From assembly GCA_965204785.1 (NCBI GenBank), contig OZ242015.1:899241-963240 (forward strand): a stretch of 64,000 bases of DNA, in the 5' to 3' direction. Position 1 is the stretch's first letter; each line of letters starts with the position of its first letter. The position numbers were made by a program, and so were the translations under genes. Positions 7,983-62,386 of the stretch are shown here, piece by piece. The DNA comes from Alphaproteobacteria bacterium. Its GTDB lineage: Bacteria; Pseudomonadota; Alphaproteobacteria; SP197. Below the pieces are notes generated by a model. That model searched no databases. It was given only the letters and a program-made list of their open reading frames with translations, and was not told the DNA's origin.

Positions 7983-8383
7983 GAATTTACTCCTTGGTTC
8001 CGGCGCGGCAAGGCTAGGCGTGCGCGGAATCGAACAACAAGCACCAACCCGTCACATTCCAGCCCGTTTGCGTCGTTGGCCGACGGATTGATACGATCGG
8101 TTCTCATCTGGAATCCGTGAGTTCTTCATAGGTACGCCTTGAGCGCCTGCCCGGGCGAACCGTCCGTCGAAGGTAGGCCGGACGGGCCACTCTTGCTTGG
8201 TTCAATTGCGTCCCTGACCGAGATCATTTCCGGCTGCACGCCACCAAAGCGTTGGGCATTCGGCTACAGCCTTCAGCGTGGGCATAGAGGCAAATTCCAC
8301 CCGCAGGCATGACATGGATCAATGCGGCGAGTCGGAACAGGCCGCGGATATCAGCGAATAACGCTCAATGGGCACCCGCCGAC

Positions 8384-8524
8384 ATGCAAGTTCAGAAAGC
8401 ACCCGATGATGCGCCCGCCGGTAGCAAGCTCCCGGAATGGTTCGTATTCCCGTTTCTAACGGTTTTCATCTAGCCCTTCGTCGCGGTCGGCGTGGTGGGG
8501 GTACTGGCGTGGTGGGGGTACTGA
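8384..8524 (+). pseudogene. napE: napE (small membrane subunit of periplasmic nitrate reductase) remnant
   Basis: MQVQKAPDDAPAGSKLPEWFVFPFLTVFI-TAG(8471)-PFVAVGVVGVLAWWGY; in-frame stop plus a 17-bp tandem duplication in the GGYGF-like region. Confidence 0.5.
8489..8522 (+). repeat. 17-bp perfect tandem duplication (ggcgtggtgggggtact x2) inside the napE remnant
   Basis: Direct reading of the sequence. Confidence 0.85.
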
Positions 8525-8577
8525 TTTGTCGTTTGGATGACTCAACTTATTGAGAGGCCGCCTAGCCCACCTGGCTC

Positions 8578-8877
8578 ATGACCGCACTCTGCAGCGGCAT
8601 CCCGGTCGATAGAGACCATGTCTCGGGGATCGTGGTCTTCCTCGGCCTGGCGGGTCATGGACCGACACTGGCTCGTCTCGCGGTGCCGCCGACGGCGATG
8701 ACCATAGCCCATGAAAGCCGCCGTGTCGCCCTTGTCGTCGAGACCGGGGACGAGCAGGGACTCGCCGATTGCGTCAACAGCCTGTCGCTGATGACCGGTA
8801 TCCAGGCAGCTTCGATAGCCTTTCACAGCATCGATCTCCAGAATGACGAGGTGCACCATGCCGTTATCGCGCCGTGA
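8578..8877 (+). CDS. napD: NapD, chaperone for periplasmic nitrate reductase
   Basis: HVSGIVVF…VALVVETGDEQ…GIQAASIAFH matches the NapD pattern (H.SslVV…klVVvlE…GVl.a.lvyH); the only apparently intact nap gene. Confidence 0.6.
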   Translation: MTALCSGIPVDRDHVSGIVVFLGLAGHGPTLARLAVPPTAMTIAHESRRVALVVETGDEQGLADCVNSLSLMTGIQAASIAFHSIDLQNDEVHHAVIAP

Positions 8878-10238
8878 TCTGATCAGGGCCCAGGCCGTGG
8901 CTGGCTTGCAACTCCCGTGCTCAGCCAGCCCCTCGAGCAGGGAATCGGCGACGTGGAACTCACTTGGCCGAAGGCGCCGTGCCGGTTCTGCGGTACCGGT
9001 TGTGGTGTGATGGTCGGTGTCAAGAAGGGGCGTGTAGTTGCCACCCATGGTGAGGTCAACCGTGGCCTCAACTGCGCGAAGGACGAGTTTCTATCGAAGA
9101 TCATGTACGGCGAGGATCGACTGATGCAGCCTCTATTGCGCATGGCCAATGGTGCCTACGACAAGGATAAGGTGAATTCACACCGGTCACATGGGCCGGG
9201 CTTTCGATGAGATGGCGCGCCAGCGGAAGCGGGTGCTGGCGAAAAAAGGGTCCACCGCGATCGGAATGTTCGGCTCCGGGCAGTGGAGCATCTGGGAAGG
9301 GCATGCCGCCAGCAAGTTGATGCGCGCTGGGTTTGGATCAAACAACCTCAATCCCAATGCCCGGCATTGCATGGCCTCGGCCGCTACGGCGTTCATTCGT
9401 ACGTTCCGCATGGACGAGCCCACGGGCTGCTATGACGATTTTGAGCATGCGGACGACTTCGTGCTCTGGGGCTCAAACATGGCCAAAATGCATCCGGTTC
9501 TTTGGACGCGCCTGACCGACCGCCGCCTAGGGCGTCCCGATGTGCGCGTCAGCGTGCTGTCGACCTAGTACGCACCGCAGTTCCGACTTGGCAGACCTGC
9601 CGATCATTTTCCGTCCTGGCACCGATCTCGTGATCGCCATCCACATCATTGCATCGGGCGCGGTGAACGAGTCATTCGTTTCTCAGAATGCCGGCTTCTG
9701 GCTTGGTAACACCGATGTCGGTTATGGCCTTCGCGACGAGCATCCTTTGCAACAAGCCGGCCAATGCGGGCGACGCGGGAGACATGTCGACGATCGACCT
9801 TCAGACCTATGCTGACTTCGTAGCGGATTACACGCTTGACCGGATCGCCGACCTCACCGGCGTGGAAGCAGACAAGCTGGAGCGTCTGGCCGCCGTCCAC
9901 GCGCATTCGGACCGCAAGGTGATGAGCCTGCGGACCATGGGTTTCAACCAGATGGAAGAAGGATACGCCAATCACGAGGTCGAGGCATTCGGGTTCTACA
10001 TTCAAAAGGGGCTGTTCGAGGAATACGCCAGTTTTGGTCACGGCCACGATCTCGACGATTTCGACACCTACTCACACCAACCGGGGAAACGCTGGTTGGT
10101 CGTCGACGGCCATGAGACACGCTGGTGCTATCGTGCCTGGGAGGACCCCTATGCCACGGTTGACGACGGTGTGCAGTTCTATGGCATGCCCGACGACCGC
10201 GCAAAAATCCCGGCGACGCCCCATGAACCGCCCGCCGC
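8858..10238 (+). pseudogene. napA: napA (catalytic subunit of periplasmic nitrate reductase), heavily degraded
   Basis: Tat signal [17 protein letters not shown] at 8858 overlapping the napD stop. NapA-like pieces sit in at least four frames (…[18 protein letters not shown]… / …[20 protein letters not shown]…[25 protein letters not shown]… / …TMGFNQ|[34 protein letters not shown]…). The junction TMGFNQ|MEEGY implies an internal deletion of roughly 300 aa, and the C-terminal ~150 aa are missing. Confidence 0.75.
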
Positions 10239-10425
10239 TTGCCCGCCAGGGCACCGATGCCGGACGTCAGATTCGGAACTATCCCGAACGATATCGGGGG
10301 CTATCAACTCACGTTGAACGCCAATACCTGTCTCACCTGCCATCGACGTCAGTATATCGAAGCCTTGAGCGCACCCATGATCTCCATCACTCATTTCAGG
10401 ACCGTGACGGCCGGATTGTTGAGAA
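10239..10425 (+). pseudogene. napB: napB (dihaem cytochrome c subunit) fragment: first haem site only
   Basis: …[46 protein letters not shown]… matches the NapB region PPMIPH..GYQ.T.N.N.CLQCH…AP.ISPTHF; signal peptide and second CxxCH lost. Confidence 0.55.
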
Positions 10426-10862: not shown

Positions 10863-10894
10863 AAACCCGCGCGTTTTTCGCGTGCCTCTAGTCA

Positions 10895-11110
10895 GTGCGC
10901 CTTCCCGATGAGACCTGTGCCCGTCTCAAGTTCCTTGCGGAGAGAACGGGATGCACGGCCACATTCTACATTCGGGAAGCCATCGAACGGCATCTGGATG
11001 ATCTGGAAGGCCGCTATGCAGCCGAACAGGCGCTGATCGCCCACCGAAGATCCGGCGACCGCACGCTCACGCTGGACGAGCTGGACGCCGAACTTGGCCT
11101 GGGAAATCAG
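10895..11110 (+). CDS. ribbon-helix-helix (CopG/ParD-like) type II antitoxin; the ORF has lost its stop and reads through to 11323
   Basis: GTG start; MRLPDETCARLKFLAERTGCTATFYIREAIERHLDDLEGRYAAEQALIAHRRSGDRTLTLDELDAELGL = RHH fold then a ParD-like tail; begins 33 bp after the right IR. Confidence 0.55.
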
Positions 11111-11169
11111 GATCACGGCAAGAGCGGCCTAGCAGATCGGGAAACTCGGGTCGCGCTGACGTCACACGT

Positions 11170-11370
11170 ATTCAGGCATTATCTAGTAAACCGGATCGCC
11201 ATCCTCGGCGATCCCCGCCAGTTGATAAAGCCTCTCTGCTGCGCGGATCCGAACTGGGCAATTTCTGGCGCTGGCGCGTTGGAAATTTTCGCATTCTGTG
11301 TGACATGCAGGATACAGAACTGATTGTTCTGGTGGTTGAAGTCGGACATCGTCGCGAGGTCTGTCGATAG
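11170..11370 (+). pseudogene. ParE/RelE-family toxin remnant (C-terminal motif only, different frame from the antitoxin)
   Basis: Frame ending at TAG 11368-11370 reads …LLRGSELGNFWRWRVGNFRILCDMQDTELIVLVVEVGHRREVCR = canonical ParE/RelE C-terminus (…R.RvG.YRiiy.i.dd.l.vl.v.HRkdvY); no recognisable N-terminal half. Confidence 0.5.
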
Positions 11371-12925: not shown

Positions 12926-13435
12926 ATGATGCGTGTTCTGGGCATTGATCCAGGTCTCCAGCATACCGGGTGGGGTGTCATCGACATTGACGGCAATGCG
13001 CTGCGCCATGTCGCACACGGCGTCATTTCGCCCGCCGCGTCCCTGCCCATAGCCGAACGCCTGACGGCTATCTTCGACGGCGTTCAGACCGTGCTCTCCG
13101 AGCAGAAGCCCGATCATGTCGCCATCGAGGAAACCTTTGTCAACCGCAATCCTGACAGCACTCTCAAACTGGGCCTGGCGCGCGGCGCGGCCCTGGTCGC
13201 CGCCGCTTCGACCGGGCTTCCGGTCTCCGAGTACGCCGCGCGGCTGGTAAAGAAGTCGGTCGTGGGGACGGGCAAGGCCGACAAGGCCCAGATCGCCACC
13301 ATGATCGCGGTACTTCTGCCCAGCGCGAAGGTCGCTAACGCGGATGCAGCAGACGCGCTTGCCGTGGCGGTCTGTCATGCGCATCACACGGCGACACTCG
13401 GACCCCGCCGTATCGCCGCCGGAGCCGCGGCATGA
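12926..13435 (+). CDS. ruvC: crossover junction endodeoxyribonuclease RuvC
   Basis: MRVLGIDPGLQHTGWGVID… RuvC fold. Confidence 0.92.
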   Translation: MMRVLGIDPGLQHTGWGVIDIDGNALRHVAHGVISPAASLPIAERLTAIFDGVQTVLSEQKPDHVAIEETFVNRNPDSTLKLGLARGAALVAAASTGLPVSEYAARLVKKSVVGTGKADKAQIATMIAVLLPSAKVANADAADALAVAVCHAHHTATLGPRRIAAGAAA

Positions 13436-14046
13436 TCGGCAAGCTGACGGGCCTCGTGGATTTTCTAGGCGAGGACTCCGCACTACTCGACGTTGGCGGT
13501 GTCGGTTATCAGTTCAGTTGTTCGGCGCGCACGCTACGCGGTCTTGGCGGTGTGGGCGATACCGCCAGCGTCTCGGTCGAGACCTTCATCCGCGACGACC
13601 GCATCGTGCTCTACGGCTTTGCCGACCGGGCTGAGCGCGACTGTTTCCGCATCCTGATGACCGTGCAGGGCGTGGGCGCGCGCGTGGCGCTCGCCATCCT
13701 CTCGGTGCTCTCGCCCGCGGAACTCGCCCAGGCCGTCCTGGCCCAGGACAAGGCGGCGGTGGCGCGCGCCAACGGCGTGGGCCCGCGCGTGGCGACCCGC
13801 GTCGTCACGGAACTCAAAGACCGCATGGGCGATGTCGGGCTGGGTCCCGGCGCCACCCTTGCTCCGCCCGGTTCGGCTGGCGCAGCCGATACAGGCGCCG
13901 ATGGCGATGCTGTCTCCGCGTTGGTCAATCTGGGCTACGGGCGCTCGGAGGCATACGGCGCCGTCGTTGCGGCACGCCGGGAACTGGGCGAGAACGCCGA
14001 GGTCTCCGCGCTCATAACCGCGGGTCTGAAGGAGCTTGGCCGATGA
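13432..14046 (+). CDS. ruvA: Holliday junction DNA helicase RuvA
   Basis: MIGKLTG…; overlaps ruvC stop and ruvB start. Confidence 0.92.
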
Positions 14047-15086
14047 GCGATGAGCGGCTGGCCAGCGGCGACCCGGGCGAAGACGATCTCAAGGGATCGC
14101 TGCGCCCCCAGGTGCTCGACGATTTCATCGGCCAGCGTCAGGTCTCCGAGAACCTCTCGGTCTTCGTCCAGGCTGCGCGCAACCGCGCCGAGGCGATGGA
14201 CCACGTCCTGTTCCACGGCCCGCCGGGCCTGGGCAAGACCACGCTGGCGCAGATTGTCGCGCGTGAACTGGGCGTGGGTTTCCGCAGCACGGCAGGGCCG
14301 ATCATCGCGCGCGCGGGCGACCTCGCGGCCCTGCTGACCAATCTGGAAGAGCGCGATGTACTCTTCATAGACGAAATTCACCGCCTTAATCCTGCCGTGG
14401 AAGAGGTATTGTATCCCGCCATGGAGGATTTTCAGCTTGATCTCATCATCGGTGTGGGGCCGGCAGCGCGGTCGGTCAAGATCGATCTTCCGAAGTTCAC
14501 GCTAGTCGGGGCGACCACCCGGTCCGGGCTTCTGACCACGCCCCTGCGCGAACGTTTTGGCATTCCCCTGCGTCTCAATTTCTATGAAGCCGACGATCTT
14601 GCCATCGTCGTCGCGCGTGCGGCCCGTGTCATGAACATGGACCTCACCGGGGACGGCGCGGCGGAGATCGCGCGGCGCGCCCGCGGCACGCCGCGCGTTG
14701 CCGTACGGTTGCTGCGCCGGGTGCGTGACATGGCCCAGGTCGGCGGGTCCGACGGCGTCGATGCAGAGGTCGCCGATGCCGCGCTCAACCGGCTGGATGT
14801 CGACGCCAGCGGGCTCGATGCCATGGACCGCCGTTATTTGGCCTGCATTGCCGAACATTATGGCGGCGGGCCGGTCGGCGTCGAAACCGTCGCGGCCGCG
14901 TTGAGCGAACACCGCGACGCCTTGGAGGATGTCATCGAGCCGTTTCTGATCCAGCAGGGCTATGTCCAGCGCACGCCGCGCGGGCGCATGCTCACACTGG
15001 CGAGCTACCAGCACTTGGGCATCGCCGCCCCTGCGCGTTCCGTGCCCCAGGTCGACCTTTTCGTGGCCGAAGACGACGATGACTGA
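14043..15086 (+). CDS. ruvB: Holliday junction branch-migration ATPase RuvB
   Basis: Walker [12 protein letters not shown]; AAA+ fold. Confidence 0.95.
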
Positions 15087-15486
15087 TGATCTCCACCAGC
15101 TTCCCGTGCGCATCTATTACGAGGACACCGATGCCGGCGGCATCGTCTATCACACCGCCTATCTGCGTTTTGCCGAACGTGGGCGAACCGAATACCTGCG
15201 CACCGCGGGGCTCGATCACCGCAACCTGCGCCGGGAAACCGGCGGCGTGTTCGTCGTGCGCCGCATGGAAATCGACTACCGCCAGGCCGCCCGCCTGGAT
15301 GAGGAACTGCGTGTCGAAACCCGCGTCGCCTCGGCCGCGGGCGCCAGCGCCGTCATGAAGCAGCGGGTGATGCGCGGCAAAACCGTTCTTGTCAGCCTTA
15401 ACGTCCAACTGGCCTTTCTGGGTGAAGACGGTCGGCCCAGACGCCTTCCCGGCGCGGTCTGCCGGGCCTTCGCCGCGCGAACCTGA
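15079..15486 (+). CDS. ybgC: Tol-Pal-associated acyl-CoA thioesterase YbgC (4HBT fold)
   Basis: [31 protein letters not shown]…; overlaps ruvB stop. Confidence 0.85.
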
Positions 15487-20633: not shown

Positions 20634-20755
20634 GGCCCGACTGCGATCTTCTGGCCGTTTGCGGTTCAAATCTCCGGCGTTTGGTCTTGTCCTCGCACCT
20701 CTTGATCTCCGGACCTGCATGTATGGAAGCCGAAGCCAGTCAGAGGGTTCTCGGC

Positions 20756-20799
20756 CATGCACGGTATTGCCGTTTCCCATGCACGGTATTGCCGTTTCG
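20756..20799 (+). repeat. 22-bp tandem duplication (catgcacggtattgccgtttc[c/g] x2) spanning the start codon of the pal paralog
   Basis: Direct reading; the first copy's ATG is out of frame. Confidence 0.85.
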
Positions 20800-21286
20800 T
20801 TTTCAGCGCTGCTTTTGCCCGCCGCCTGCAGCAATCCTTCGGTCCAGGAAGATGAACGCGTGGTCTACAGCGTCGATGCCGACGATGGCGACGCACTTAT
20901 GGTCGACGACACGTGCTTGGCGGCTTTGAAGTGCTCACCGATCTGGATCGGAGGCGCCGGGTCACTGGCCAACCGGGAGAACGCATGACAGCATCACCCT
21001 GACACCGCAGGGCCAGCAAATCGTGAAGGGCTGGAGCGAATGGATGCGCCAGTTTCCCGAGGTTGCCGTGCGCATCGAGGGGCACGGCGACGAGCGCGGG
21101 ACGCGCGAATACAATCTTGCGCTCGGCGACAAGCGCGCCAATGCGGTACGTAATCTTATCATCGCCTACGGCATCGACCCCTCGCGGATCGGTGTCGTCA
21201 GCTTCGGCAAGGAGCGTCCGGTGGTTGCCGGCCATACCCAGAAGTCCTGGGCGCAAAACCGTCGCGGTGTTCTGACGATCATTTAG
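20779..21286 (+). pseudogene. second, disrupted pal copy (pal') downstream of cpoB
   Basis: Frame 1: MHGIAVSFSALLLPAACSNPSVQEDERVVYSVDADDGD… (signal+lipobox+acidic start, parallel to Pal) ending TGA 20988. Frame 2 (20990-21286): …ITLTPQGQQIVKGWSEWMRQFPEVAVRIEGHGDERGTREYNLALGDKRANAVRNLIIAYGIDPSRIGVVSFGKERPVVAGHTQKSWAQNRRGVLTII, an intact OmpA-like domain ~75% identical to Pal. Shared upstream motif ttctggccgtt. Confidence 0.6.
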
Positions 21287-27178: not shown

Positions 27179-27219
27179 CTCCCGGCTCCCCCCGGACCAA
27201 GTCCGGGGGGAGCCGGGAC
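27179..27219 (+). terminator. GC-rich perfect hairpin (18-bp stem, 4-nt loop) just after glmM
   Basis: tcccggctccccccggac-caag-gtccggggggagccggga; no U-tract. Confidence 0.4.
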
Positions 27220-27308
27220 CTCGACAGGCAGGCTCGTAATTCTCGGGGCCTGGATCGAGGACACCTTGCCTGTGGTGGACATAGCTTTCTTGAAGAGGGT
27301 GCTGGCGA

Positions 27309-27723
27309 CCCTCACACCACCACGCCTATCGACGGCGGTACGTCGCGTGTCAGGTTGGCGACCATGTCGAGACCGCTTGCCAGATCCTCGTGGGTCATCG
27401 GGCCGGTCAGCGACAGGCGCACCGCGAAAGGCACGGTATCGCGCCCGATGGCGAAGGATTCCGCAGGCGTGAGCACCACACCCGGCCGCTCGGCGGGGCG
27501 GGTGAAATGTCGGACGTCAGGGCTCGGGCAGGGTGAGCCATCGATGGAAGCCGTTGGGATAGGCTTGGAACTCCAGTCCGGCCAGATGTTTGCGGGCGAT
27601 GGCCTCTAGTGCCCGTGCTTCCGCGCGCACGATGTCTTCGAACGTCTCGACCGAGCCTGCCTCCATCCAGCGCCTGGCCAGTTCGGTCATCAGCAGCGGG
27701 GCATGCAGGCTGGTCGCGGCCAT
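27309..27723 (-). pseudogene. C-terminal fragment of a PLP-dependent aminotransferase / MocR-type protein (N-terminally truncated, one frameshift)
   Basis: …LMTELARRWMEAGSVETFEDIVRAEARALEAIARKHLAGLEFQAYPNGFHRWLTLPEP then +1 shift …RPGVVLTPAESFAIGRDTVPFAVRLSLTGPMTHEDLASGLDMV…; TGA immediately upstream of the first Met. Confidence 0.5.
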
Positions 27724-27779
27724 GATCCGCGTGCCTCGTCACTCTGGCCTTCGGACGTTACCAGAAGGAGACAAGACCA

Positions 27780-27996
27780 TGACACAGATTGCCCATCATC
27801 ATCTCGCCGACGCCGCCCAGCACATCTGGAACATGGTCTCTGCACCGTTGCCGTGCCCGACGCCCTGATGACCTGGCGGTAACGCGGGCAGACCCGATCA
27901 GCCCTGCGTCAGATGGACGACAGTCTGCTGCGCGACATGGGCATCGACTGCATCTCGGCCCAGCACGAGGTGCGCAAGCCATTCTGGAAAGCCTGA
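27780..27996 (+). pseudogene. DUF1127-family small protein, frameshifted
   Basis: C-terminal frame gives …SALRQMDDSLLRDMGIDCISAQHEVRKPFWKA* (DUF1127 hallmark …L.DigI.R.di…kpFW); N-terminal MTQIAHHHLADAAQHIW… and W..RCRARR are in two other frames. Confidence 0.45.
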
Positions 27997-28273
27997 AATA
28001 TCCGTGTCATTCCGGCTCTCCGCTCCTCCGCTACGGTCGGGATGGCATACTTGATGTGGTCATGATGACGTTCTGCGGCGAAAGCGGAGCGGCCTCCGAC
28101 CGGTGCAACCGCGCACCAACGACTGAGGTTAAACAAAATCCGCCGGGGTGACAAACTTATCTCCATCGCCGTCATCATCGCGTAGGATGATTTAGTAGCA
28201 AGAACCGGGTCGTTGAACCCATGTGCGTATTCTACTTTCAACCTGTCGCATGGAATCACTCGGAGACAGGACA

Positions 28274-29238
28274 TGACCAGAACACAGGCAAGCGATTACG
28301 CAAGGGTCGAGCAGGCGATCGGCTTTCTCGACGAGAACTTTCTCGACCAGCCCGATCTCGAGGATCTCGCCGCCCAGATCGGCTTGAGTCCCTGGCACTT
28401 CCAGCGCCTGTTCCGCCGCTGGGCCGGCATCAGCCCCAAACGGTTTCTGCAGTTTCTCACCGTCGACTATGCCCGCGATCTGCTGGAGCGCTCGACGCCC
28501 GTGCTGGATGCCGCCTTCGAATCCGGTCTTTCCGGCCCCTCACGTCTGCATGACCTCTTTGTCGTGACCGAGGCCGTCACCCCCGGCGACGTGCGCCGCG
28601 GCGGCCAGGGCCTTGTCATCCGCCACGGCGTGCACACCTCGCCCTTCGGACCGGCTGCACTCGGCATGACCGACCGCGGCGTCTGTTCGCTCACCTTCGG
28701 GCCTGCCGATGCGATGGATGCGGGCTGGGCGCGCGGCCTACTGCTCTCCCGCTGGCCCAATGCCACGCTTGTCGAGGACGGCCCTGCCACGGCAAAGGTC
28801 GCCCAGCAGATTTTCGACGGCAAGGCGGACGCCAGCGCCATCCCGCTCCACCTGCGCGGCACCAACTTCCAGATTCGCGTGTGGGAGGCTCTGTTGCGCA
28901 TTCCGCCCGCCGCCGTCACGTCCTATCAGGATCTCGCCCGGCGCAGCGGCGACGAGCGTACCATGCGCGCCACTGCCTCGGCCGTCGCGCGCAATCCGAT
29001 TGCGTTTGTCATTCCCTGCCACCGCGTCATCCGTAAGACCGGACCGTTTCACAACTACGCTTGGGGGCAGCATCGCAAGCAGGCCATTCTGGGCTGGGAA
29101 CAGGCCCGCTTCGGCGAAGGCCGCGACTGCGGCCCGCGCACACTTGTGCGCGAGCCATGGATTGCGGATGCAATCCGCCCGGCGTTTGAGGACAAGCAAA
29201 GACGTGCTATCCGGCACGCTTTTGCGTCACCAAATTAG
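28274..29238 (+). CDS. AraC-family HTH fused to methylated-DNA-[protein]-cysteine S-methyltransferase (Ada-like, no Zn methylphosphotriester domain)
   Basis: AraC HTH (…LAAQIGLSPWHFQRLFRRWAGISPKRFL…) plus MGMT active site IPCHRVI. Confidence 0.8.
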
Positions 29239-29249
29239 GAGTTCATGCC

Positions 29250-30062
29250 GTGCGTTATCCCATCTATCAGGTCGATGCCTTTGCCAACTGTGCGTTCCGC
29301 GGTAACCCGGCGGCGGTGATGCCCTTGGAAGAATGGATGAAGGACGATGCGCTCCAGGCCATCGCGGCAGAGAACAACCTTGCCGAGACGGCGTTTTTCC
29401 GGCCCGGCACGGACGAGGCGTTTGAACTGCGCTGGTTCACGCCCACGGTGGAGGTCGATCTCTGCGGTCACGCCACGCTCGCCACCGCGTTCATCCTGAT
29501 GACCGAGATCGATCCCGACATGGAGGAGGTCGCCTTCGAAACCCGCAGCGGGCGGCTCTATGTCCGACGCCGGAAGGACCTCTTCGTGCTCGATTTTCCC
29601 ATCCATGAGATGAATTCGAATTCGACGCCCGATGCGGTGGCGCAAGCCATCGGCGCGGCGCCCAGCGAGGCTTTTGTCGGCAAAGATGGCGGAAACTATC
29701 TCTTCGTCTATGAGCACGAGTCCGATGTCGCCGGACTCGCCCCCGACATGGCGGCGCTCGTGAAGGCCGTCGGCGAGGACGAACGCGGCGTCATCTGCAC
29801 CGCACCACTTGAGTCGGGCGAGGGCGATTGCGTCTCACGCTACTTCGCGCCCGCTCACGGCATTCCCGAGGACCCCGTCACCGGCTCGGCCCATTGCATG
29901 ATCGTGCCCTATTGGGCCGGGCGTCTGGGCCAGGACCGTATCCACGCTTTCCAGATTTCCAAGCGCGGCGGCGAACTTTTCTGCGAGCGCAAGGGTGAGC
30001 GCGTCGAAATCGCCGGCCGCGCCGTCAAATACCTCGAAGGCATCGCCCACATTCCGGGATAG
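29250..30062 (+). CDS. PhzF-family (phenazine biosynthesis-like) isomerase
   Basis: MRYPIYQVDAFANCAFRGNPAAVM…, DAP-epimerase-like PhzF fold; GTG start. Confidence 0.8.
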   Translation: MRYPIYQVDAFANCAFRGNPAAVMPLEEWMKDDALQAIAAENNLAETAFFRPGTDEAFELRWFTPTVEVDLCGHATLATAFILMTEIDPDMEEVAFETRSGRLYVRRRKDLFVLDFPIHEMNSNSTPDAVAQAIGAAPSEAFVGKDGGNYLFVYEHESDVAGLAPDMAALVKAVGEDERGVICTAPLESGEGDCVSRYFAPAHGIPEDPVTGSAHCMIVPYWAGRLGQDRIHAFQISKRGGELFCERKGERVEIAGRAVKYLEGIAHIPG

Positions 30063-30099
30063 GCGCCATCAATAGTGCCGCCGCGCGGGAGGCGGGGTT

Positions 30100-30560
30100 C
30101 GTGCATGGGTCCTCCGGTCAAGCTTGTATGGGGTTTGGCGATCGGGGGGTTACGGTTTGGTTTTCGCTCACCCATTAGCCCGGGAGAGACTGATGAACGG
30201 CCTTGCGCGACACGCCTTGCCCGCGAGATTGACGATGGGCCGGAGTGCTGCCTTGTTGCAGTCGAGTTGAGCAAGAAAAGCCGGTTACCGGGCTCGCGGA
30301 CGGCTTTGCCGGACACAAGATCGTCCTGCACGATCTTCCCGCCGGGGATGGCGCCGGGGCGCCCGGTGGAGGTCGTCCCGTGCTGCGAGGCGGGCTGTGA
30401 CGGGTTCTGGCTGCATCGTCTTTTGCGGGTGCATGGGGTTGTGAACCATGTGTTCGATGCTGCGGGCCTTCAGGTGGGCCGCCGTGCGCGGCGGCCAGGA
30501 CCGACCGGATCGACGTACGGGTTCTTGTGTGCGCTCCGATGGCGCATCTGCGCGGTGAGC
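30100..30560 (+). pseudogene. IS110-family (DEDD) transposase N-terminal remnant
   Basis: …CLVAVELSKKS…PVEVVPCCEAGCDGFWLHRLLRVHGVVNHVFDAAGLQVGRRARRPG… resembles the IS110 DEDD domain (vGiDvsK…vvmEatGgY…L..aGf.V.vvnP); no intact ORF, no catalytic C-terminal domain. Confidence 0.35.
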
Positions 30561-31343
30561 CCGGTGCGGTAGCGTGGTTCAGGTCCCGATCCGGAGCGGG
30601 AGGACGCGCGCCGGCTGCACCGCAAGCGCGCCCGCCCGGTCAACGGGCGCATCCGGCACGTCAACCGCATCAGGGGTCTTCCGGCGACCCGGGGCATCTC
30701 CAGGGCCGGGAACCCCAGGGCCCGCAGCACCACCATCGAACGCGCCCCGGAAGGTACCAGGCGCACCGACGACGGCCAGATCGTCGCGTTCTGCCTGACC
30801 TGACGTCCCGTCCCGGCCGCGCCGTTCCGCGTTCCCCGAACGTCTCCCGATTTATCGCCGTTTCACACCCCCGGAAACCCTTGATATCCGACCTCTTCCC
30901 GCCTTCTTCCCGATTCACAAAGACTTTCCTCCCCCACAAGGGACCCTTGTGCGGCAAACGAAAACCCGATTGGATACAGGTTTACGCGGCATGCGCCGCG
31001 GCACTCAAATCAGGCCCCATCCTTGGATCACAACGCCTCGACACCCAACAAACCCCATATAAGCCGATGGGACGACACAGGGCGGTGAGGAAACGCCAAG
31101 CCCCAATCACACTCCCAACCCGTCATCGTCGAACGTGACTCGATGATCCATGCGCGGACCTCACCTCCTGCGTCGATGAGGGCCGCCGGCAAACTGTGAT
31201 CAAGCGCGCCATCAAAGTTTGACCTCGATGCAGCGTGACCCGCAACTTGCGGTAGCTTGCAGCAATCTTGTGAGGACACCGGACAACAGAAGGCGCTAAG
31301 AAGGGTGCATCTTTCTTGAAGCAGTCAGCGGGGAAAACAGGGC

Positions 31344-31914
31344 ATGGCACTCCAGATTCGCAAGCCAGTGACACACATGGACGAGACCCTGATCGAGGGC
31401 GGTCGCGGGGCTGAAAAGCCATGGTTCCTGATGGCCGTGGCAACCGTCGTCGCCAGCCCTTGGGTTGGGCAAGGGATTGTCAAGGATCTGTGTCCGGAGA
31501 TCCTTTCTCTGGCACCGCCTCTGGGCGATGTCCTGATGTCGCGTGTCCTGGAAGCCTGTGGGGCCGAGACCTACGGCAAGTCCGCCGTCGTTGGCCTCAA
31601 CGGCGAGACTGAGCACGGCAGCGGCTTTCATCCACACCCTGTGCTTCGGCAACAAGTACCGCGAGGCCGTGGGCGGCACGTCCTATCTTTCGTTCACCAA
31701 CACGCGGTCGCGGTCCGGACAGTCGATCCAGATTCCGATGATGCACAAGAACGATCCCGGCTTCCGGTACCACTACATCACGCTCGAATTCTCCATCCAA
31801 GACGCGCCCGGCCCCGACGAGATCGTCGTCGCCTGCCACCACGTCCGCCCGCCCGCACCACCATATCGGCAACCGCTATTCAGACATGGATGAGATGGGC
31901 ATCAAGCAGGAGGA
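31344..31914 (+). pseudogene. DUF1185 ('amino acid synthesis' family) protein, at least two frameshifts
   Basis: MALQIRKPVTHMDETLIEGGRGAEKPWFLMAVATVVASPW…YGKSAVVGLNGETEHG | frame 2 …AAFIHTLCFGNKYREAVGGTSYLSFTN…IQIPMMHKNDPGFRYHYITLEFSIQDAPGPDEIVVACH | frame 3 …RPHHHIGNRYSDMDEMGIKQEDG*. Confidence 0.55.
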
Positions 31915-31940
31915 CGGCTGAGTACGCAGGAGTTCTCGGC

Positions 31941-32213
31941 ATGAAGCAACGCGAGGTCACGTGCGCCTGTGGCGCGTTCAAGGCGCTTTGCCGGGGCGAA
32001 TCGGTGAAGATTTCGCTCTGCCATTGCCTCGACTGTCAGAAACGCACGGGCAGCGCCCTCGGCATTGCCGCGTTCTTCGAGCGCCCCGCCGTCGCGGCGA
32101 GCGCGTTTGCCGATCCAGCCCTTTCCCGCCCTGACCCAGTCGGTCTTCTCGGAGCGCCGCCACGGCTGGGTGGTCGAGATCCCAACGACACGGTAAGGGC
32201 AGGCCAGCCATGA
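31941..32213 (+). pseudogene. second GFA-family protein, apparently truncated/frameshifted at the C-terminus
   Basis: MKQREVTCACGAFKALCRGESVKISLCHCLDCQKRTGSALGIAAFFERPAV… then the conserved tail (…VFSERRHGWVVE) is in another frame. Confidence 0.45.
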
Positions 32214-33022
32214 GCAACAAACAACAATCCGGCGAAAATCACGTTGTCGTCTCGGGCGATGGGCCGCCGGTCGTGCTGGTGCACGGCGTGGGCTGCGATC
32301 ACACGCTCTGGGACGATGTCGTGCCCGCGCTCGAAGCAAGCCACCGCGTCATCCGCTACGACATGCTGGGCCACGGCAGAACGCCCATGCCGGGGGGCGA
32401 GGTCACGCTCCGGACCTATGCCGATCAGCTCGATGCCGTCAGCAGTGCCTTGGACTTGGAACGTTTCGCGCTGGTCGGCTTTTCCATGGGTGTGCCGATC
32501 TCGCAGCTCTTCGCCCTGGCTCACGGCGAGGCGCTGGCGGGCCTCGTACTCATGAACGGCGTCTATGACCGCGCGCAGGAACAGATAGCCGCGGTCCGCA
32601 TGCGCGTGGAGCAGGCGCGCCGGGAAGGCACCGGCATCCTGGTCGAACCCGCCATGGAACGCTGGTTCTCGCCCGAGTTCCGCGCCGCCCGGCCGGATCA
32701 GGAAGCGCGCATCCGCAAGCGTCTGGCCGACAACAACCCTGACGACTTCCTCATCGCCTACAACATTTTCGCCGAGGCCGACCCCTGGGTCGTGGGCAAG
32801 CTTGGCGCCATCGCCTGCCCCACGCTCGTCACCACGGGCGAAAAGGACCCCGGCTCCGTCCCGGCCATGAGCCGTGCCATGGCGGACGCCATACCCGGCG
32901 CAACCTGCCGGATCATGCCCGGCCTGCATCATATGCCTATGGTCGAGGGTCCCGAAGCGGTGTCGAATCTGCTGCTAGCATTCATTTCGGGTCTCCCGCG
33001 CGATGGCAGCCGTTGGGCATGA
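32210..33022 (+). CDS. alpha/beta-fold hydrolase
   Basis: VVLVHGVGCDHTLW…; nucleophile elbow GFSMG; 270 aa. Confidence 0.8.
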   Translation: MSNKQQSGENHVVVSGDGPPVVLVHGVGCDHTLWDDVVPALEASHRVIRYDMLGHGRTPMPGGEVTLRTYADQLDAVSSALDLERFALVGFSMGVPISQLFALAHGEALAGLVLMNGVYDRAQEQIAAVRMRVEQARREGTGILVEPAMERWFSPEFRAARPDQEARIRKRLADNNPDDFLIAYNIFAEADPWVVGKLGAIACPTLVTTGEKDPGSVPAMSRAMADAIPGATCRIMPGLHHMPMVEGPEAVSNLLLAFISGLPRDGSRWA

Positions 33023-33086
33023 ACGTACGCTCTCGTCTGACCGTACAGACCTGATAGGATAGCATCGCCAACAACGGGAGACGGCA

Positions 33087-33554
33087 TGATCGCACCACAG
33101 ACCGTGCCCGAAGTCGTGAACTGGGCCTGCGACCTGCTCACCTCGGTCGGCCAGACGCCGGCCGCTGATGAACAAGGAGGTCGACGGTTTCATCGTCAAC
33201 CGGCTCCAGTTCGCCGTGTTGCGTAAAGCATGATCCATGTGGGCAAACGGCATCGCCTCGGCCGAAGCGATTGACAACTCCTTCAAGATGACGCTCGGCC
33301 GCCGGTATTCCGACACCGGTCCCATCGAGTCGGCCGAATTGGGCGGGCTCGACATTCTCCACGCCTTTGCCGAGTTTCTGTTTCCCACCATCGACAAGTC
33401 CGATGCCTCGCCCGATGCGCTGACCGAACTGGTGCGCGTGGGCAACCATGGCCTCAAATCCGACAAGGGCATCTATTACTGGAGCCAACGCGACGGCAAG
33501 ATGCTCGCTGCCCGCCTCTTCCAGCGCATGGACAAGGACGCCGGGAAGGACTGA
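33087..33554 (+). pseudogene. 3-hydroxyacyl-CoA dehydrogenase C-terminal-domain fragment (NAD-binding N-terminus absent, one frameshift, in-frame TGA)
   Basis: …VPEVVNWACDLLTSVGQTPA | LMNKEVDGFIVNRLQFAVLRKA-TGA-SMWANGIASAEAIDNSFKMTLGRRYSDTGPIESAELGGLDIL…GNHGLKSDKGIYYW; only 65 nt separate it from the preceding gene. Confidence 0.55.
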
Positions 33555-33860
33555 TGGGCGCGGAACATGGCCGGCCGATATAGAACCCGTGACGATTTCT
33601 ACATTCTGGCAGAGAGTGCAAACTGCTTTGCATACCTCGCAAACCATCATATCGCTCCATTGTGATCCCCAGCGAGGGCTGGGTCCCATACGCATCGTCA
33701 AGGATGGTGAAGCGTTGGGATTGGTCCACGCGCACCATGACCGCCGAGCTTATAACCCCAGCCTTCGCCAGGGATCCAGTTGGTGCGTCGTTGAGTCAGC
33801 CTGTGGAATGCGATCTGGCGAGTGGGAACTGAAAAACCCCGCACCACGCCCAAAAATGCG

Positions 33861-35060
33861 TTATCCGTCGAAATGCTTGGCGCGGTGCACCTCGTCTCCG
33901 ACCAGCAGGGTCATCATAACCTCGGTCTCGCCGATCTCGCGGGGATCAATGGCGAAGATGTCGAGGTCGAGGACGATGAGGTCAGCGAACTTGCCCTTGG
34001 CGAGCGTGCCGATATCGCGCTCGCGCCAGGCGCCCGCAGTTGCGTTGACGGTATAACCCTTCATCGCGCTCTCGATGTCGATCCGCTATTCGGGCAGAAA
34101 CACGGGTAATCGCCCTCGCGGCGTCCGGGCGATCTGGATGATGGGGAAGGGGTTCTGCGTGGAAACACCCCAGTCGCTCGATAGCGCATGGGGCGCGTTT
34201 TTCGCCCACCATGACGATCTCCACCGACGGTTCCAGGCGCGCCCAGTTCGCGGAAACGGGAAATGTAGGCGGGATCGATCATCTGGACATGGGCAAGCTG
34301 ATGGAGCGCGGACCAGAGACCGTCCGCCTGGATGGCCGCCTCGATGCAATCCAGCGCCACGCGCGCCGCGCCTTCGCCGATGACATGGACATGCAATTGG
34401 AGCCGCGCGGCATCGAACGCGACCATGAAACGCTCCAGGTGCTCGCGGTCGAACATCAACTCGGCGTTGCCGCCGTCCTCGCTGTAGGGTTCGATCATCA
34501 GCCCGGTGCGGTTTTCCATCACGCCGTCCAGGGAGAATTTGGCCGAATGCACACGCGCCATGGGACACGAAAAGTCGCGCCGAAGCATGGTGAGGCGCTC
34601 CATCGCGCCTTCCAGCGTGTCGGTCGGGTTGACCAGCGCGGTTGGCTGCCGCGCGCAGGGTCAGCGCATCCAGCACGCCGGTGATGCCGAAGCGGTTGCA
34701 TTCGGCCTAGCCAAACAGCACATCCTCCGCATAGGTGTTGTCAGGCAGTTCCGGCATGCGCTCGGAGAGCCAGTGCGTCGCCTTTTCATAAAGCAAATCG
34801 GTAACCCGTCCGTCTGCGTCACGCACTAAACGCCCATCCTCGGGACCATCGTTCACGCCGTTGGCGAGATCCCGGATGGCGTGGTTTTCTCCCAGGGCCA
34901 CGATGTGCCCGTCCTTGACCGCCGGGGCCTCGACATGGGGATGGGCGATGTCCATGGTGCGGATGTTGTCGTTGATGACAATGAGATGAGTGCGCTGGCG
35001 ATCACGTCGGGAAGCTCCGGACAGGTGGAATTGAGCGCTGTCTTTGCGCCCGATCGCAAG
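33861..35060 (-). pseudogene. amidohydrolase-3-family metal-dependent hydrolase, several frameshifts and deletions
   Basis: N-term (34707-35060) …HLIVINDNIRTMDIAHPHVEAPAVKDGHIVALGENHAIRDLANGVN…; middle (34061-34603) …FMVAFDAARLQLHVHVIGEGAARVALDCIEAAIQADGLWSALHQLAHVQMIDPAYISRFRELGA; C-term (33861-34064) …MKGYTVNATAGAWRERDIGTLAKGKFADLIVLDLDIFAIDPREIGETEVMMTLLVGDEV; all three pieces in different frames. Confidence 0.55.
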
Positions 35061-35072
35061 CCTTGTGAAGCG

Positions 35073-35775
35073 TTAGTTTGCGTCTAGCGCGGCAATCACA
35101 TCCCGGCTTCTGCCCAATATGCCGAACACGCCGCCGGCTGCGCGGATGATGGTCAGTGCGGCCTCATGGCGTGCGGCGCTTCCCGCGGTGACGCCGTCCT
35201 CCACGACCATACAATCGAAGCCCCGGTCCAGCGCTTCGCGCAGGCACGAGGTGACGCAGCAATCGGTCGTCACGCCGGTCAGGATCAGCGTGTCGATGGC
35301 CTTACTTGGAGAGATACTGGCCGATGTCGGTGGTGGCGAAGACACCACAACTTGCCTTGTCGAAGACGGCTTCACCGTCACACGGCTGAAAGACGTTCGT
35401 GAAGTCCCAGCCAGGCTCGCCGCGAACCAGGGCGCGGCCCAGGGGGTCTTCGCTGCAGATCGCTTCGTTGATTGGGCCAGCCTTTTTCATGGGCTGGAGA
35501 TCGCTCAAATCCGGTGCGTAGCCCTCGCGCGTGTGAACGATCGTGAGATCGGCGCTACGCGCGGCGTCGAGAACGCCCAGTAGCGGCTCGACATGTGCCT
35601 GCAGCCGGGCAAGATCGCAACCCAGTCGGTGCATGTAGCCGTTCTCCGCGCAGAAATCGCGTTGCATGTCGATGACCAGCAACGCGGTGCGGGAAGAATT
35701 GAACGAGCCGCCCTGGGAAAAGGGTGCCGGATGTGCCTGGATGTGCTCCGCGTTCATCCGTACGCCCGTTCCCAT
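35073..35775 (-). pseudogene. isochorismatase-family cysteine hydrolase with one frameshift (N-half 35302-35775, C-half 35073-35381)
   Basis: …ALLVIDMQRDFC… and …AIDTLILTGVTTDCCVTSCLREALDRGFDCMVVEDG… overlap by 80 nt in different frames. Confidence 0.55.
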
Positions 35776-36968
35776 TCGACCATGTAGTCGCGGGTTTCGG
35801 GCGTGGCGTAGCGGTCCTTGGCGATCTGGACCTGGAAAACCATCTGGTCATCATGGCGGAAGGTCTGTTCACAGCCCAGCAGATAAAATTCCCACATGCG
35901 GCAGAACCGTTCGTCATAGAGCTGCTTCACCGCTTCGCGGTTGACGGCGAAGCGCCGATGCCAGTGTTTCAGGGTTTCGGCATAGTGGGTTTTCAGGATC
36001 TCCATGTCCGTGGCGAGCAGCTTGCTGCGCTCCAGGCTGGTCAAGACTTCCGAGAGCGCGGGCGTATAGCCGCCGGGGAAGATGTACCTCCGCAGCCACG
36101 CATTCGTGTTGCCGGGTTCGGAAAACCGGCCGATGGAGTGGAGCAACATCACACCGTTGTCGGTCATCAGTTCGCGGATCTTGCGGAAGAATTCCAAATA
36201 ATGGCGCGAGCCGACATGCTCGAACATGCCCACCGACACGATCCGGTCGTACTGCTGTTCTAGGTGCCGGTAGTCCTTCAGGTGGAACTGCACCCGATCG
36301 GCAAGCCCGGCCTCCCTAGCGCGCCGGTTTGAAACCTCGTGCTGTTCCCTGGAGAGCGTCACGCCGGTGACTTCCACGCCCGCCTCACGCGCCAGATAAA
36401 GACCCATGCCGCCCCAGCCCGAGCCGATATCGAGCACGCGCATACCCGGTTCCAGCAGCAGTTTGGAGGCGATGTGCCGCTTCTTGTCGGCCTGCGCCTG
36501 CTCCAGCGTGCTGTTGGGCGTGGCGAAGTAGGCGCAGGAATACTGCCGGTCTTCGTCGAGGAAGAGATCGAACAGATCGTCGGAAAGATCGTAATGATGC
36601 GCCACGTTGCGCCGTGCGCGCGTGGCGGGGTTATGCTGTTGCAGTGGGCGCGTGATGTTGCGCCGGATCCATGTGCCCATCCGGCCCACGGCGTCGTCGC
36701 GTTCCAGATTTTTCAGATTGCGTCCGACAACCTCGAAGAAATTCTCTATCGTGCCGTCCTCGATAGTCAGCGTGCCGTCCATATAGGCTTCGCCAACACC
36801 GATCGTGGGCGCGATGCCCAGCTTCCAGTGCAGCGCGGGATCGTGCAGCCGGACGGTGACAGAAGGTTCGGCCCCCGGCGTGCCGAAGGTATGTTCCTTA
36901 CCGTGGGCGTCGATCAGTTGCAAACGACCGACGGTGATAAGGCGTTGCAGAATTCCGGACAACAGCAT
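35754..36968 (-). CDS. cfa: cyclopropane-fatty-acyl-phospholipid synthase family SAM-dependent methyltransferase
   Basis: VLDIGSGWGGMGLYLAREAGVEVTGVTLSREQ…; 404 aa. Confidence 0.85.
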   Translation of the reverse strand: MLLSGILQRLITVGRLQLIDAHGKEHTFGTPGAEPSVTVRLHDPALHWKLGIAPTIGVGEAYMDGTLTIEDGTIENFFEVVGRNLKNLERDDAVGRMGTWIRRNITRPLQQHNPATRARRNVAHHYDLSDDLFDLFLDEDRQYSCAYFATPNSTLEQAQADKKRHIASKLLLEPGMRVLDIGSGWGGMGLYLAREAGVEVTGVTLSREQHEVSNRRAREAGLADRVQFHLKDYRHLEQQYDRIVSVGMFEHVGSRHYLEFFRKIRELMTDNGVMLLHSIGRFSEPGNTNAWLRRYIFPGGYTPALSEVLTSLERSKLLATDMEILKTHYAETLKHWHRRFAVNREAVKQLYDERFCRMWEFYLLGCEQTFRHDDQMVFQVQIAKDRYATPETRDYMVEWERAYG

Positions 36969-57349: not shown

Positions 57350-57883
57350 CCGTCGCAACTATTTTATGACTGAATGATGCGCCCAGGGCCAAAATCCCGC
57401 CGCGTCGGGTTTGATTCAGGACGAGAGTCTTAAAGGCGTGCTCTTCAAGGGATCCTGGTGGTTCGTTCAACAGTTTGTTAAGGTTTTCCAGGGTTGGCGT
57501 TAATTGCCGGACCCGTTCGGCTAAAGTTGTGCCGGACTCAAAGGCCCCGCCAACGCGGCAACGTCCCTGTCTATCTCCAACATCACGGCATCGCCAACAA
57601 GATCTTCCGCAATTGCTGTCAAGGTCACGATTCCGCCCCCGGCAAACGGCTCAATAAGGAACTGAGCATTGGTATGCCGAAGCCATTCTCTTAATATGGA
57701 GTATAAGCCACGTCTTACCGCCCGGATAGCGCACAAGGGGCTGCGTTGCGGAACAATGCCAGTGCGGACATTGAATTGCGCTCTGCTCTTAGCCTTCCGG
57801 CAATTTTTGCACCGGTGGGTTTGAGTGGGGTGCGTGGTTTCCGACGACATCCAGGCTATCGCATCGTGGACAACAGACACCAT
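57350..57883 (-). pseudogene. D12-class (Dam-like) N6-adenine DNA methyltransferase N-terminal remnant
   Basis: …AIRAVRRGLYSILREWLRHTNAQFLIEPFAGGGIVTL… (motif I EPF.GgG) ending at a stop; possible continuation in another frame (…TLVLNQTRRGGILALGASFS ~ Dam fNrkGefNvpfG); no catalytic DPPY region. Confidence 0.3.
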
Positions 57884-57899
57884 CTGTCCAACGCTCAGC

Positions 57900-58150
57900 C
57901 CTAAGCCATGCCCTGGATTTTGTCTTCTGTACTGAACATATAAGCTATTTCCAGTAGCCTCAGACCTTTATGGTAGGATTTCCTCAATGCTTTGCTTGCC
58001 ATTATGCTTTTCCTTTGATTGCGTTACTGAATAAAAACCGATATTATCACCTGTGACAAACGATTACTATTCGATATAATTGCCTTTTCATTAGAGTCGG
58101 GGTTTCCAGTCTTAAGCCAGTGTGTAGCCTAAACAATGGCGACTATACGC
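57900..58150. other. AT-rich (~40% GC) island in the lptF/pepA divergent intergenic region
   Basis: e.g. ctgaataaaaaccgatattatcacctgtgacaaacgattactattcgatataattgcc. Confidence 0.5.
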
Positions 58151-58344
58151 TAAGGAGTCCGGTAAAAACAGGTCACTAGCTCGGATTTCTCACCACCGCG
58201 ACGGCCTGCGCGTTTCGACCCCGCCAGCAGGATTAGGAAAGACGCGCTGCGCGATGCTGGTCCATCGGGCAAGCGTCTTAACACACCCTGCCGGGGACTC
58301 TTCACAACACCGGTTGATGCTCTAAAGTCGCGCGGACAACCCAC

Positions 58345-62272: not shown

Positions 62273-62386
62273 TGGCGGAGCCCGGGACCCTCCGCGTCCA
62301 CATCCCGCTCGCCCTGCGCAATCGGGGCGGCCGCCCCCGCATTCTGCCACCGAAGGACATCGAGAGAGCGTACGGGACGGTAGTTC

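Follow-up and report, generated by a model that had tools for sequence, protein, structure and literature searches.

Early-stage degenerative genome evolution in bacteria has been reviewed (PMC5091035), and the closest described comparison for the locus analyzed here is found in the genus Sodalis. The free-living strain HS carries 61 pseudogenes among 3,993 coding sequences (CDS), or ~1.5%, while Sodalis pierantonius SOPE, a nascent symbiont of an insect host, has 43% pseudogenes and 18% insertion sequence (IS) DNA genome-wide (PMC3914690). A stepwise model of erosion has also been proposed, in which neutralization of a gene is followed by pseudogenization, gradual erosion, and loss (PMC4224334). 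Here we describe a tract of about 8.6 kb, located between glmM and cfa, in which most genes are broken. The tract lies in the 64-kb stretch of DNA that was analyzed (the window), which is part of contig OZ242015.1 (positions 899,241 to 963,240, assembly GCA_965204785.1) from an Alphaproteobacteria bacterium with a chromosome of ~3.75 Mb. An earlier note, made from the sequence alone, had counted eight relics in this tract and had taken them as a sign of ongoing reductive decay of the accessory genome.

The locus resembles SOPE, when the latter is compared to HS, in that dispensable genes have been killed by frameshifts, stops, and truncating deletions that are recognized against the intact orthologs of a relative. 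It also shares with SOPE the sparing of housekeeping genes and, more tentatively, a possible IS-associated rearrangement and signs of accelerated protein evolution. There are differences as well. The window is a 64-kb sample in which ~20% of the genes are broken, with a single dead IS and a GC content of ~62%, and SOPE has a known host. In addition, the nearest intact reference is ~80% identical at the nucleotide level rather than nearly identical as in the SOPE and HS pair; synonymous sites are near saturation against the available relatives and the timing is not calibratable. The graded series of decay, together with a net DNA loss of 12% in the block that extends from DUF1185 to the isochorismatase gene, is like the one expected from the stepwise model (PMC4224334). 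We consider, with good confidence, that the tract consists of genuine pseudogenes, which would have arisen when regulatory and catabolic genes that were dispensable ceased to be under purifying selection and then eroded by mutation with a bias toward deletions. This erosion is genuine; it affects dispensable genes on which selection has been relaxed, at several loci, and is not confined to the tract.

The nearest relatives, found in a collection that includes one genome per species, are marine metagenome-assembled genomes (MAGs). The bin L001, from an uncultured alphaproteobacterium, has a GlmM with 90% identity to that of the window, and the 'Rhodospirillaceae' bins L002 and L003 have GlmM proteins with 78-79% identity. 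The relatives of the right half of the tract (L081, L082, and L084-L086) were reached via homologs of its alpha/beta hydrolase, and L081 is the closest one (85% identity in the hydrolase nucleotide alignment). The hydrolase of the window is 100% identical to one database protein, encoded on a contig of 3,752,649 bp, and the source is therefore a chromosome that is nearly complete. In L001 (MAG A_MB180) the genes ftsH, ada, and phzF are each broken into several open reading frames (ORFs) at positions 6900-8950 and 13100-15100. This bin looks like an indel-rich long-read assembly, which makes it risky as an 'intact' reference. Therefore, L002 and L003 were taken as the clean references for the left half. 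For the lesion statistics the CDS were aligned to L081, and the N-terminus of the amidohydrolase was read from BLAST blocks against the same reference. Relative rates were determined in two triplets, the window and L081 with L084 as the outgroup, and the window and L001 with L003 as the outgroup. A comparison of synteny with relatives, proposed in the earlier note, located intact orthologs at syntenic positions in L001-L003 and in L081/L084. The features of the tract and the cfa gene that borders it are the following.

27315..27770, minus strand: relic of a MocR/GntR-aminotransferase regulator gene (blastx to the intact orthologs, 485 amino acids in L001 and 502 in L002)
27773..27996, plus strand: DUF1127 relic (residues 9-34 and 26-87 of the 87-amino acid L001 ortholog in different frames)
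28213..29238, plus strand: intact Ada-like regulator, AraC helix-turn-helix and O6-methylguanine methyltransferase domain (Pfam HTH_18 and DNA_binding_1 fully covered)
29250..30062, plus strand: intact PhzF-family gene (Pfam PhzC-PhzF 1-281/281)
30063..31261, no strand: synteny breakpoint, orphan DNA around the IS relic (no similarity to either flank in relatives)
30249..30760, plus strand: IS110-family transposase relic (blastn and blastx)
31344..31921, plus strand: AA_synth (DUF1185) relic (Pfam PF06684 9-97 and 90-162 in two frames)
31922..32209, plus strand: GFA relic (Pfam PF04828 positions 3-50/115)
32210..33022, plus strand: intact alpha/beta hydrolase (270 amino acids, full-length homologs)
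33023..33554, plus strand: 3-hydroxyacyl-CoA dehydrogenase (HADH) relic (Pfam 3HCDH C-terminal domain 1-96/97, spanning the stop)
33555..33860, no strand: orphan segment of ~310 bp between the convergent HADH and amidohydrolase relics (no counterpart in L081, where the genes abut)
33861..35006, minus strand: Amidohydro_3 relic (Pfam PF07969 220-329 and 407-471 in different frames)
35073..35757, minus strand: isochorismatase-family relic (Pfam PF00857 1-109 and 111-169 in two frames)
35754..36968, minus strand: intact cfa (404 amino acids, 89% identity to L081, no indel)

All eight relics carry a disabling lesion, i.e., a frameshift, a premature stop, or a truncation of more than ~10-20%. Full-length functional syntenic orthologs were found in L001-L003 for MocR and DUF1127, and in L081/L084 for DUF1185, GFA, HADH, amidohydrolase, and isochorismatase. 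That the lesions are no sequencing errors is shown by their types, their distribution, the substitutions that accompany them, and the codon positions where these substitutions occurred. There are 22 small indels, 12 of them of 2 bp or more (2-31 bp), and those of 1 bp are found outside long homopolymers. Large deletions removed 1,112, ~570, 345, and ~80 bp, and five nonsense substitutions are present in the relics, at positions 27519, 27880, 33231, 34709, and 34088, without counting an internal stop in the IS110 relic. When the disabling lesions were mapped relative to L081, all but one of 23 were inside relic CDS, which represent 30% of the aligned CDS (binomial p 6e-11). The 6.5 kb of core CDS from cfa to fabF and the hydrolase gene located amid the relics are clean in the same comparison. 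These observations bear out the statement in the earlier note that random sequencing indels do not explain the broken genes.

The amino acid changes specific to the window lineage, as compared to those specific to L081, were 26:1 for DUF1185, 23:2 for HADH, and 34:7 for isochorismatase. Pooled, they amount to 83:10 (p 4e-14), with an excess that ranges from 5- to 26-fold per gene. This test of relaxed constraint covers these three genes; MocR, DUF1127, GFA, and amidohydrolase lack a suitable triplet. The substitutions that occurred in the relics along the window lineage are distributed as 54/48/94 among codon positions 1/2/3, versus 9/12/70 in the functional L081 orthologs (p 3e-6). Changes from GC to AT outnumber those from AT to GC in the relics (98:47). 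Errors that consist of indels cannot yield an excess of replacements or a flattened codon-position spectrum, and the four lines of evidence, which are independent, exclude sequencing error. A genetic code where TGA is read as Trp was also considered, as two of the stops are TGG to TGA changes. This option was rejected; the core ORFs are intact and end normally under code 11, and TAG or TAA is found at the three remaining stops.

The earlier note had also stated that the 40 kb of core genes elsewhere in the window show no lesions. This holds for the housekeeping genes, and lesions are nevertheless present in other parts of the window. Domain scans showed that mttB, yebC, ruvCAB, tolQR, ftsH, folP, glmM, cfa, the ribosomal protein genes, the fab genes, and mltG are complete, as are yicC, gmk, ksgA, pdxA, surA, lptDFG, pepA, and holC. 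Broken genes were found at several other locations. The nap operon, which specifies the periplasmic nitrate reductase, is a relic (8423-10421, plus strand) in which napE has two stops, the NapD-like ORF is weakly recognizable, and napB is reduced to residues 50-96. In napA, residues 30-390 are spread over four frame segments, a deletion took residues 391-609, and nothing is left of the C-terminus. A gene for an AbrB-family (PF05145) membrane protein is also broken (4887-5690, plus strand), with profile positions 194-279/314 found in a 103-amino acid ORF (5382-5690) and the upstream piece in another frame. In the tol-pal cluster of the relatives, ybgF is followed by a tandem pair of OmpA-like lipoprotein paralogs. 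In the window, the first of them retains its N-terminus, which is joined in a different frame to the C-terminal OmpA domain of the other one (20700-21286, plus strand), and an 87-amino acid ORF is left (profile 22-98/98). The conserved Cys of the EGHCDERG motif is replaced by Gly in this fusion. Near the end of the window, the region 61637-64000 includes a 99-amino acid ORF with a fragment of the serine-recombinase 'Recombinase' domain and short pieces, and its GC content falls to 0.54; it probably represents what is left of a mobile element. This fragment adjoins a UvrD-like helicase with a Zn ribbon that starts mid-domain and exits the window. Altogether, ~14 of ~65 genes are broken, at six loci within the 64 kb, and intact genes cover 31% of the tract versus ~80% of the rest of the window. 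In the block that is common to the relatives, L081 has one dead gene out of 20 (GFA) and L084 has none out of 25.

Two other regions of the window were recorded. There is an unusually long gap of ~1 kb, with a reduced GC content (0.545) and without coding-like ORFs, between the divergent lptF and pepA (57359-58344). An ORF located at 10892-11320 (plus strand) starts like a ribbon-helix-helix antitoxin, with weak Pfam RHH matches, and continues as unrelated sequence, and could represent a toxin-antitoxin pair that was fused or has decayed.

The core genes analyzed for evolutionary rates lie in the regions 16.7-27.2 kb and 35.7-42 kb. When eight flanking core genes were pooled, the lineage-specific replacements were 80:42 in the window versus L081 (p 6e-4), and the ratio of changes at positions 1+2 to those at position 3 gave an odds ratio of 1.5 (p 0.03). 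In the second triplet the core replacements were 184:145 (p 0.03), although the assembly errors in L001 should raise the count of L001. These comparisons of protein sequences are suggestive of a lineage-wide relaxation of purifying selection.

Synteny of the left half with L001-L003 starts at 16.4 kb and includes tolQRAB-pal, tilS, ftsH, folP, glmM, MocR, DUF1127, ada, and phzF, to end exactly after phzF, at ~30,070. The MocR relic, which the earlier note had correctly recognized as a C-terminal fragment, consists of the last ~140 codons of the gene (residues ~346-485 of the 485 amino acids in the L001 ortholog). A deletion of 1,112 bp (L001 11808-12920) took the N-terminus together with the divergent promoter/intergenic region up to the start of DUF1127. 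What remains is interrupted by two frameshifts and by a TGG to TGA change at 27519, inside the conserved 'LTLPEPWRP' motif. A 30-mer that spans the MocR/DUF1127 deletion junction had no match in a scan of metagenome contigs. DUF1127, also described before as frameshifted, has one frameshift and, in addition, a Glu to TAA stop at 27880 and a deleted upstream region. The two genes that follow agree with their description as intact. The Ada-like regulator is full length, with 70% identity to its L002/L003 counterparts and a relative rate of 10:13 against L001, and PhzF, the last gene of the block syntenic with L001-L003, has 75% identity to the same bins and a relative rate of 12:15. The pooled lineage-specific replacements of both genes are 22:28 (versus L001, outgroup L003), i.e., there is no excess, and the two genes remain constrained.

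The right half corresponds to a block that in four related organisms is composed of dnaB (minus strand), AA_synth/DUF1185 (196-197 amino acids), GFA (133 amino acids), the alpha/beta hydrolase, HADH (315 amino acids), Amidohydro_3 (545 amino acids), isochorismatase (227 amino acids), and cfa, and continues with rplI, DUF2232, rpsR, rpsF, fabD, fabG, acpP, fabF, and mltG. The Amidohydro_3 gene is found in L081 and is missing from L084-L086. The window conserves the gene order and orientation of L081 and L084-L086 from DUF1185 on, with the dnaB-side flank replaced by the phzF block. Five of the six genes between this junction and cfa are dead here, unlike the situation in the relatives, where at most GFA is degraded or the amidohydrolase is missing. 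The reading of these genes in the earlier note held in each case, as detailed next. Compared to L081, DUF1185 retains its ATG and has frame-breaking indels of +1 and -5 and an in-frame loss of 12 bp. The truncated GFA gene consists of ~50 N-terminal codons and a C-terminal remnant, with the middle deleted. Among the relatives, the 133-amino acid GFA is intact in L084 and L085, and a 45-amino acid ORF is found in its place in L081 (5814-6021), L082 (582-719), and L086 (4164-4596). The hydrolase is identical in L084, L085, and L086, so the loss of GFA is recurrent, even within a species-level group. The alpha/beta hydrolase of the window, the one gene of this half upstream of cfa that had been considered intact, has no indel compared to L081 and a relative rate of 10:13, and it continues to be under purifying selection.

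The HADH relic lost its NAD-binding domain (~570 bp compared to the 315-amino acid L081 gene), and it has frameshifts and the predicted in-frame stop, Trp205 TGG to TGA, at 33231. The amidohydrolase gene, with reference to the 545-amino acid gene in L081, is found as pieces in three frames, with at least eight frame-breaking indels of 1-31 bp, two CAG to TAG stops (34709 and 34088), and deletions of ~80 and 345 bp. Pfam missed the upstream HADH piece and the N-terminal amidohydrolase piece, and the alignment to the orthologs was needed to recognize them. The segment that separates these two relics, 33555-33860, had no match in Pfam, Rfam, repeats, the local loci, the window, or plasmids. The isochorismatase gene is full length and retains its ATG; its one effective lesion is a net +1 frameshift at codons ~149-153. 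It overlaps the cfa stop by 4 nucleotides, as it does in the relatives. The distance between the DUF1185 and isochorismatase starts is 4,414 bp, compared to 5,024 bp in L081, i.e., 12% shorter despite the 310-bp insert. The cfa gene opens the undamaged core run cfa-rplI-DUF2232-rpsR-rpsF-fabD-fabG-acpP-fabF-mltG.

The comparison of gene order with the relatives indicates that the tract is not one unit and points to two ancestral syntenic blocks, glmM to phzF and DUF1185 to cfa, joined at a breakpoint marked by the IS110 relic. The description of the tract as decaying accessory genome is thus correct in that dispensable genes decay while the core is spared, and incorrect in that the DNA is ancestral and syntenic and not strain-specific accessory DNA. 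In L081 and L084-L086 the DUF1185 to cfa block adjoins dnaB. The region 30063-31343 of the window matches neither the post-phzF genes of L001-L003 nor the dnaB-side genes of L081/L084, and neither set of genes was found anywhere in the window. A mere ~82 bp separate the breakpoint from the start codon of DUF1185, which lies downstream. Within it, the IS110-like relic reported in the earlier note was identified by blastn, with 66-68% identity (E 6e-17) to annotated transposases on Skermanella, Bradyrhizobium, and Roseomonas plasmids, and by blastx (E 2.5e-26), with 30249-30698 corresponding to residues 21-187 and 30690-30746 to residues 311-329 of a 389-amino acid transposase. As in other IS110 transposases, these segments belong to the DEDD-type N-terminal domain and to the region of the GISKAGN motif. 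The relic has an internal stop and small deletions, with ~120 codons gone and no intact ORF or definable ends, and unlike a working IS110 it is non-functional. It is too decayed for Pfam models, which missed it in a six-frame scan, and its assignment to the family, which confirms the call of the earlier note, is based on pairwise similarity. There is no second copy of IS110 in the 64-kb window. The rest of the junction, ~0.7 kb (30063-30248 and 30761-31261), had no match in Pfam searches of six frames (E<=1), the local loci, the window itself, or plasmids, close to the ~800 bp of apparently non-coding DNA that had been noted next to the IS.

The junction also includes a 16-nucleotide inverted repeat (30122-30137 and 31049-31064), complementary at 15 of 16 positions, whose arms are 911 nucleotides apart and enclose the greater part of the junction, with the IS110 relic in it. 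The chance expectation of such a pair is ~0.01 per 1.4 kb, a rough estimate that was not computed by a tool. Members of the IS110 family are not known to have terminal inverted repeats. The repeat was not taken as the ends of the IS, as the bracketing of the IS110 relic would be atypical for the family.

The course of events that we propose would start with the loss of purifying selection on dispensable genes, which would then become pseudogenes and be subjected to deletion-biased mutational erosion. A deletional bias of bacterial genomes was reportedly described by Mira, Ochman and Moran in 2001. IS110 may have taken part in the rearrangement by which the two blocks became adjacent. The number of disabling lesions per relic goes from one to more than ten, and the block shows net DNA loss. 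This graded decay suggests that the process is still under way, with a single effective frameshift in isochorismatase at one end, the half-lost amidohydrolase, napA, and IS110 in between, and a junction that can no longer be recognized at the other end. The many replacements found in isochorismatase, for a single frameshift, fit with neutralization before disruption. The whole lineage could be under relaxed selection or have a reduced effective population size, as would be expected in early- to mid-stage reductive evolution.

Other explanations were weighed against that of pseudogenes formed by relaxed selection. Consensus indel errors, such as those of long reads, in a poorly covered and strain-variable region could in principle produce broken genes. 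The source is a single 3.75-Mb contig, probably obtained from long reads; the assembly of L001 does show split ftsH, ada, and phzF; and a second assembly for a cross-check was not found. Nevertheless, this kind of artefact is highly improbable in view of the four large deletions, the five nonsense substitutions, the dozen indels longer than 1 bp, the location of the 1-bp indels outside long homopolymers, the excess of replacements, and the flattened codon-position spectrum. Furthermore, the 6.5 kb of neighboring core CDS are clean, and the 813-bp hydrolase gene has no indel when ~6 would be expected at the lesion density of its neighbors. A purely local cause would be that an operon lost its promoter or regulator in the IS110-associated rearrangement, and the silenced neighborhood decayed in an otherwise healthy genome. 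The proximity of the breakpoint to the DUF1185 start, the dead IS in the junction, and the MocR deletion, which also took the upstream region of DUF1127, agree with this scenario. However, an intact hydrolase that is still under constraint lies amid the supposedly silenced operon, and amidohydrolase and isochorismatase, located on the other strand downstream of the intact cfa with the ancestral 4-nucleotide overlap, are probably still transcribed. The intact ada and phzF separate MocR and DUF1127 from the breakpoint, and unrelated loci 20-25 kb away (nap, AbrB, the OmpA-like pair, and the recombinase) are broken too. The constrained hydrolase, the relics downstream of cfa, and the distant broken loci make purely local silencing unlikely.

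The more serious competitor, although still improbable, is ordinary gene turnover in a free-living bacterium, where the window happens to be rich in dispensable genes and neither a reductive regime nor a change in lifestyle is needed. The relatives vary in the loss of GFA and the presence of amidohydrolase, the genome of ~3.75 Mb is not small, its GC content in the window is still ~62%, and IS proliferation is not seen there. Against this, the fraction of broken genes (~14/~65, at six loci) is ~10 times that of the free-living strain HS (~1.5%; PMC3914690), the same block has one dead gene out of 20 in L081 and none out of 25 in L084, and core proteins show signs of acceleration in two triplets. 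There is very little to recommend the idea of a decaying island of horizontally acquired DNA that was brought with the IS and is now being purged. The IS relic and the orphan DNA at 30.06-31.26 kb, as well as the slightly lower GC content (0.60-0.61) at 31-32 and 33-34 kb, would be compatible with it. Both halves of the tract are, however, syntenic with relatives, with the same order, orientation, and core flanks. The GC content of the tract is 0.60-0.66 versus a window mean of ~0.62, and the identity to L081 is alike for relics (76-85%) and core genes (80-86%). There are no tRNA genes in the window and no tRNA or integrase at the borders of the tract. Rfam searches of the tract produced only chance-level miRNA matches.

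Some observations count against the interpretation of genuine pseudogenes within a wider erosion. No independent assembly of the organism was found to re-confirm the lesions. The acceleration of the core proteins is modest and outgroup-dependent, it is based on 8-9 genes per test, and the topology of tolB, folP, and tilS is ambiguous. The single dead IS110 is located exactly at the synteny breakpoint, and no IS expansion is seen in the window. The free-living relatives have also lost GFA (L081, L082, and L086) or lack amidohydrolase (L084-L086), and some turnover in this block is normal for the clade. Finally, decay at the level of the genome is an extrapolation from 64 kb out of ~3.75 Mb. One possibility, which we put forward tentatively and regard as doubtful, is that the source is an undescribed member of a marine Rhodospirillales-like clade, whose other known members are metagenome bins that look free-living, and is in early-middle genome erosion after a recent shift to a host-restricted or bottlenecked lifestyle. 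In such a lineage, about one fifth of the genes may be dead, nitrate respiration may be lost, and core proteins may be accelerating.

The processes involved, pseudogenization, deletional bias, and IS-associated rearrangement, are textbook phenomena, and what is new is the instance in a poorly known marine alphaproteobacterial lineage. For the purpose of annotation, the eight ORF fragments in the tract and at least six others elsewhere in the window are pseudogenes rather than short hypothetical proteins, and the locus should not be taken for a mobile island. To judge from the window, the number of dispensable genes undergoing decay in this 3.75-Mb genome would be unusually high. They include the whole nap operon, and close relatives keep these genes in intact form. 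If this load is not genome-wide, the case would be one of routine gene loss. If it is genome-wide, it would represent a natural experiment on early genome reduction outside insect symbionts, and an eroding lineage of this kind would serve as a model of incipient genome reduction that has a high GC content, does not involve insects, and can be compared to close relatives that are intact.

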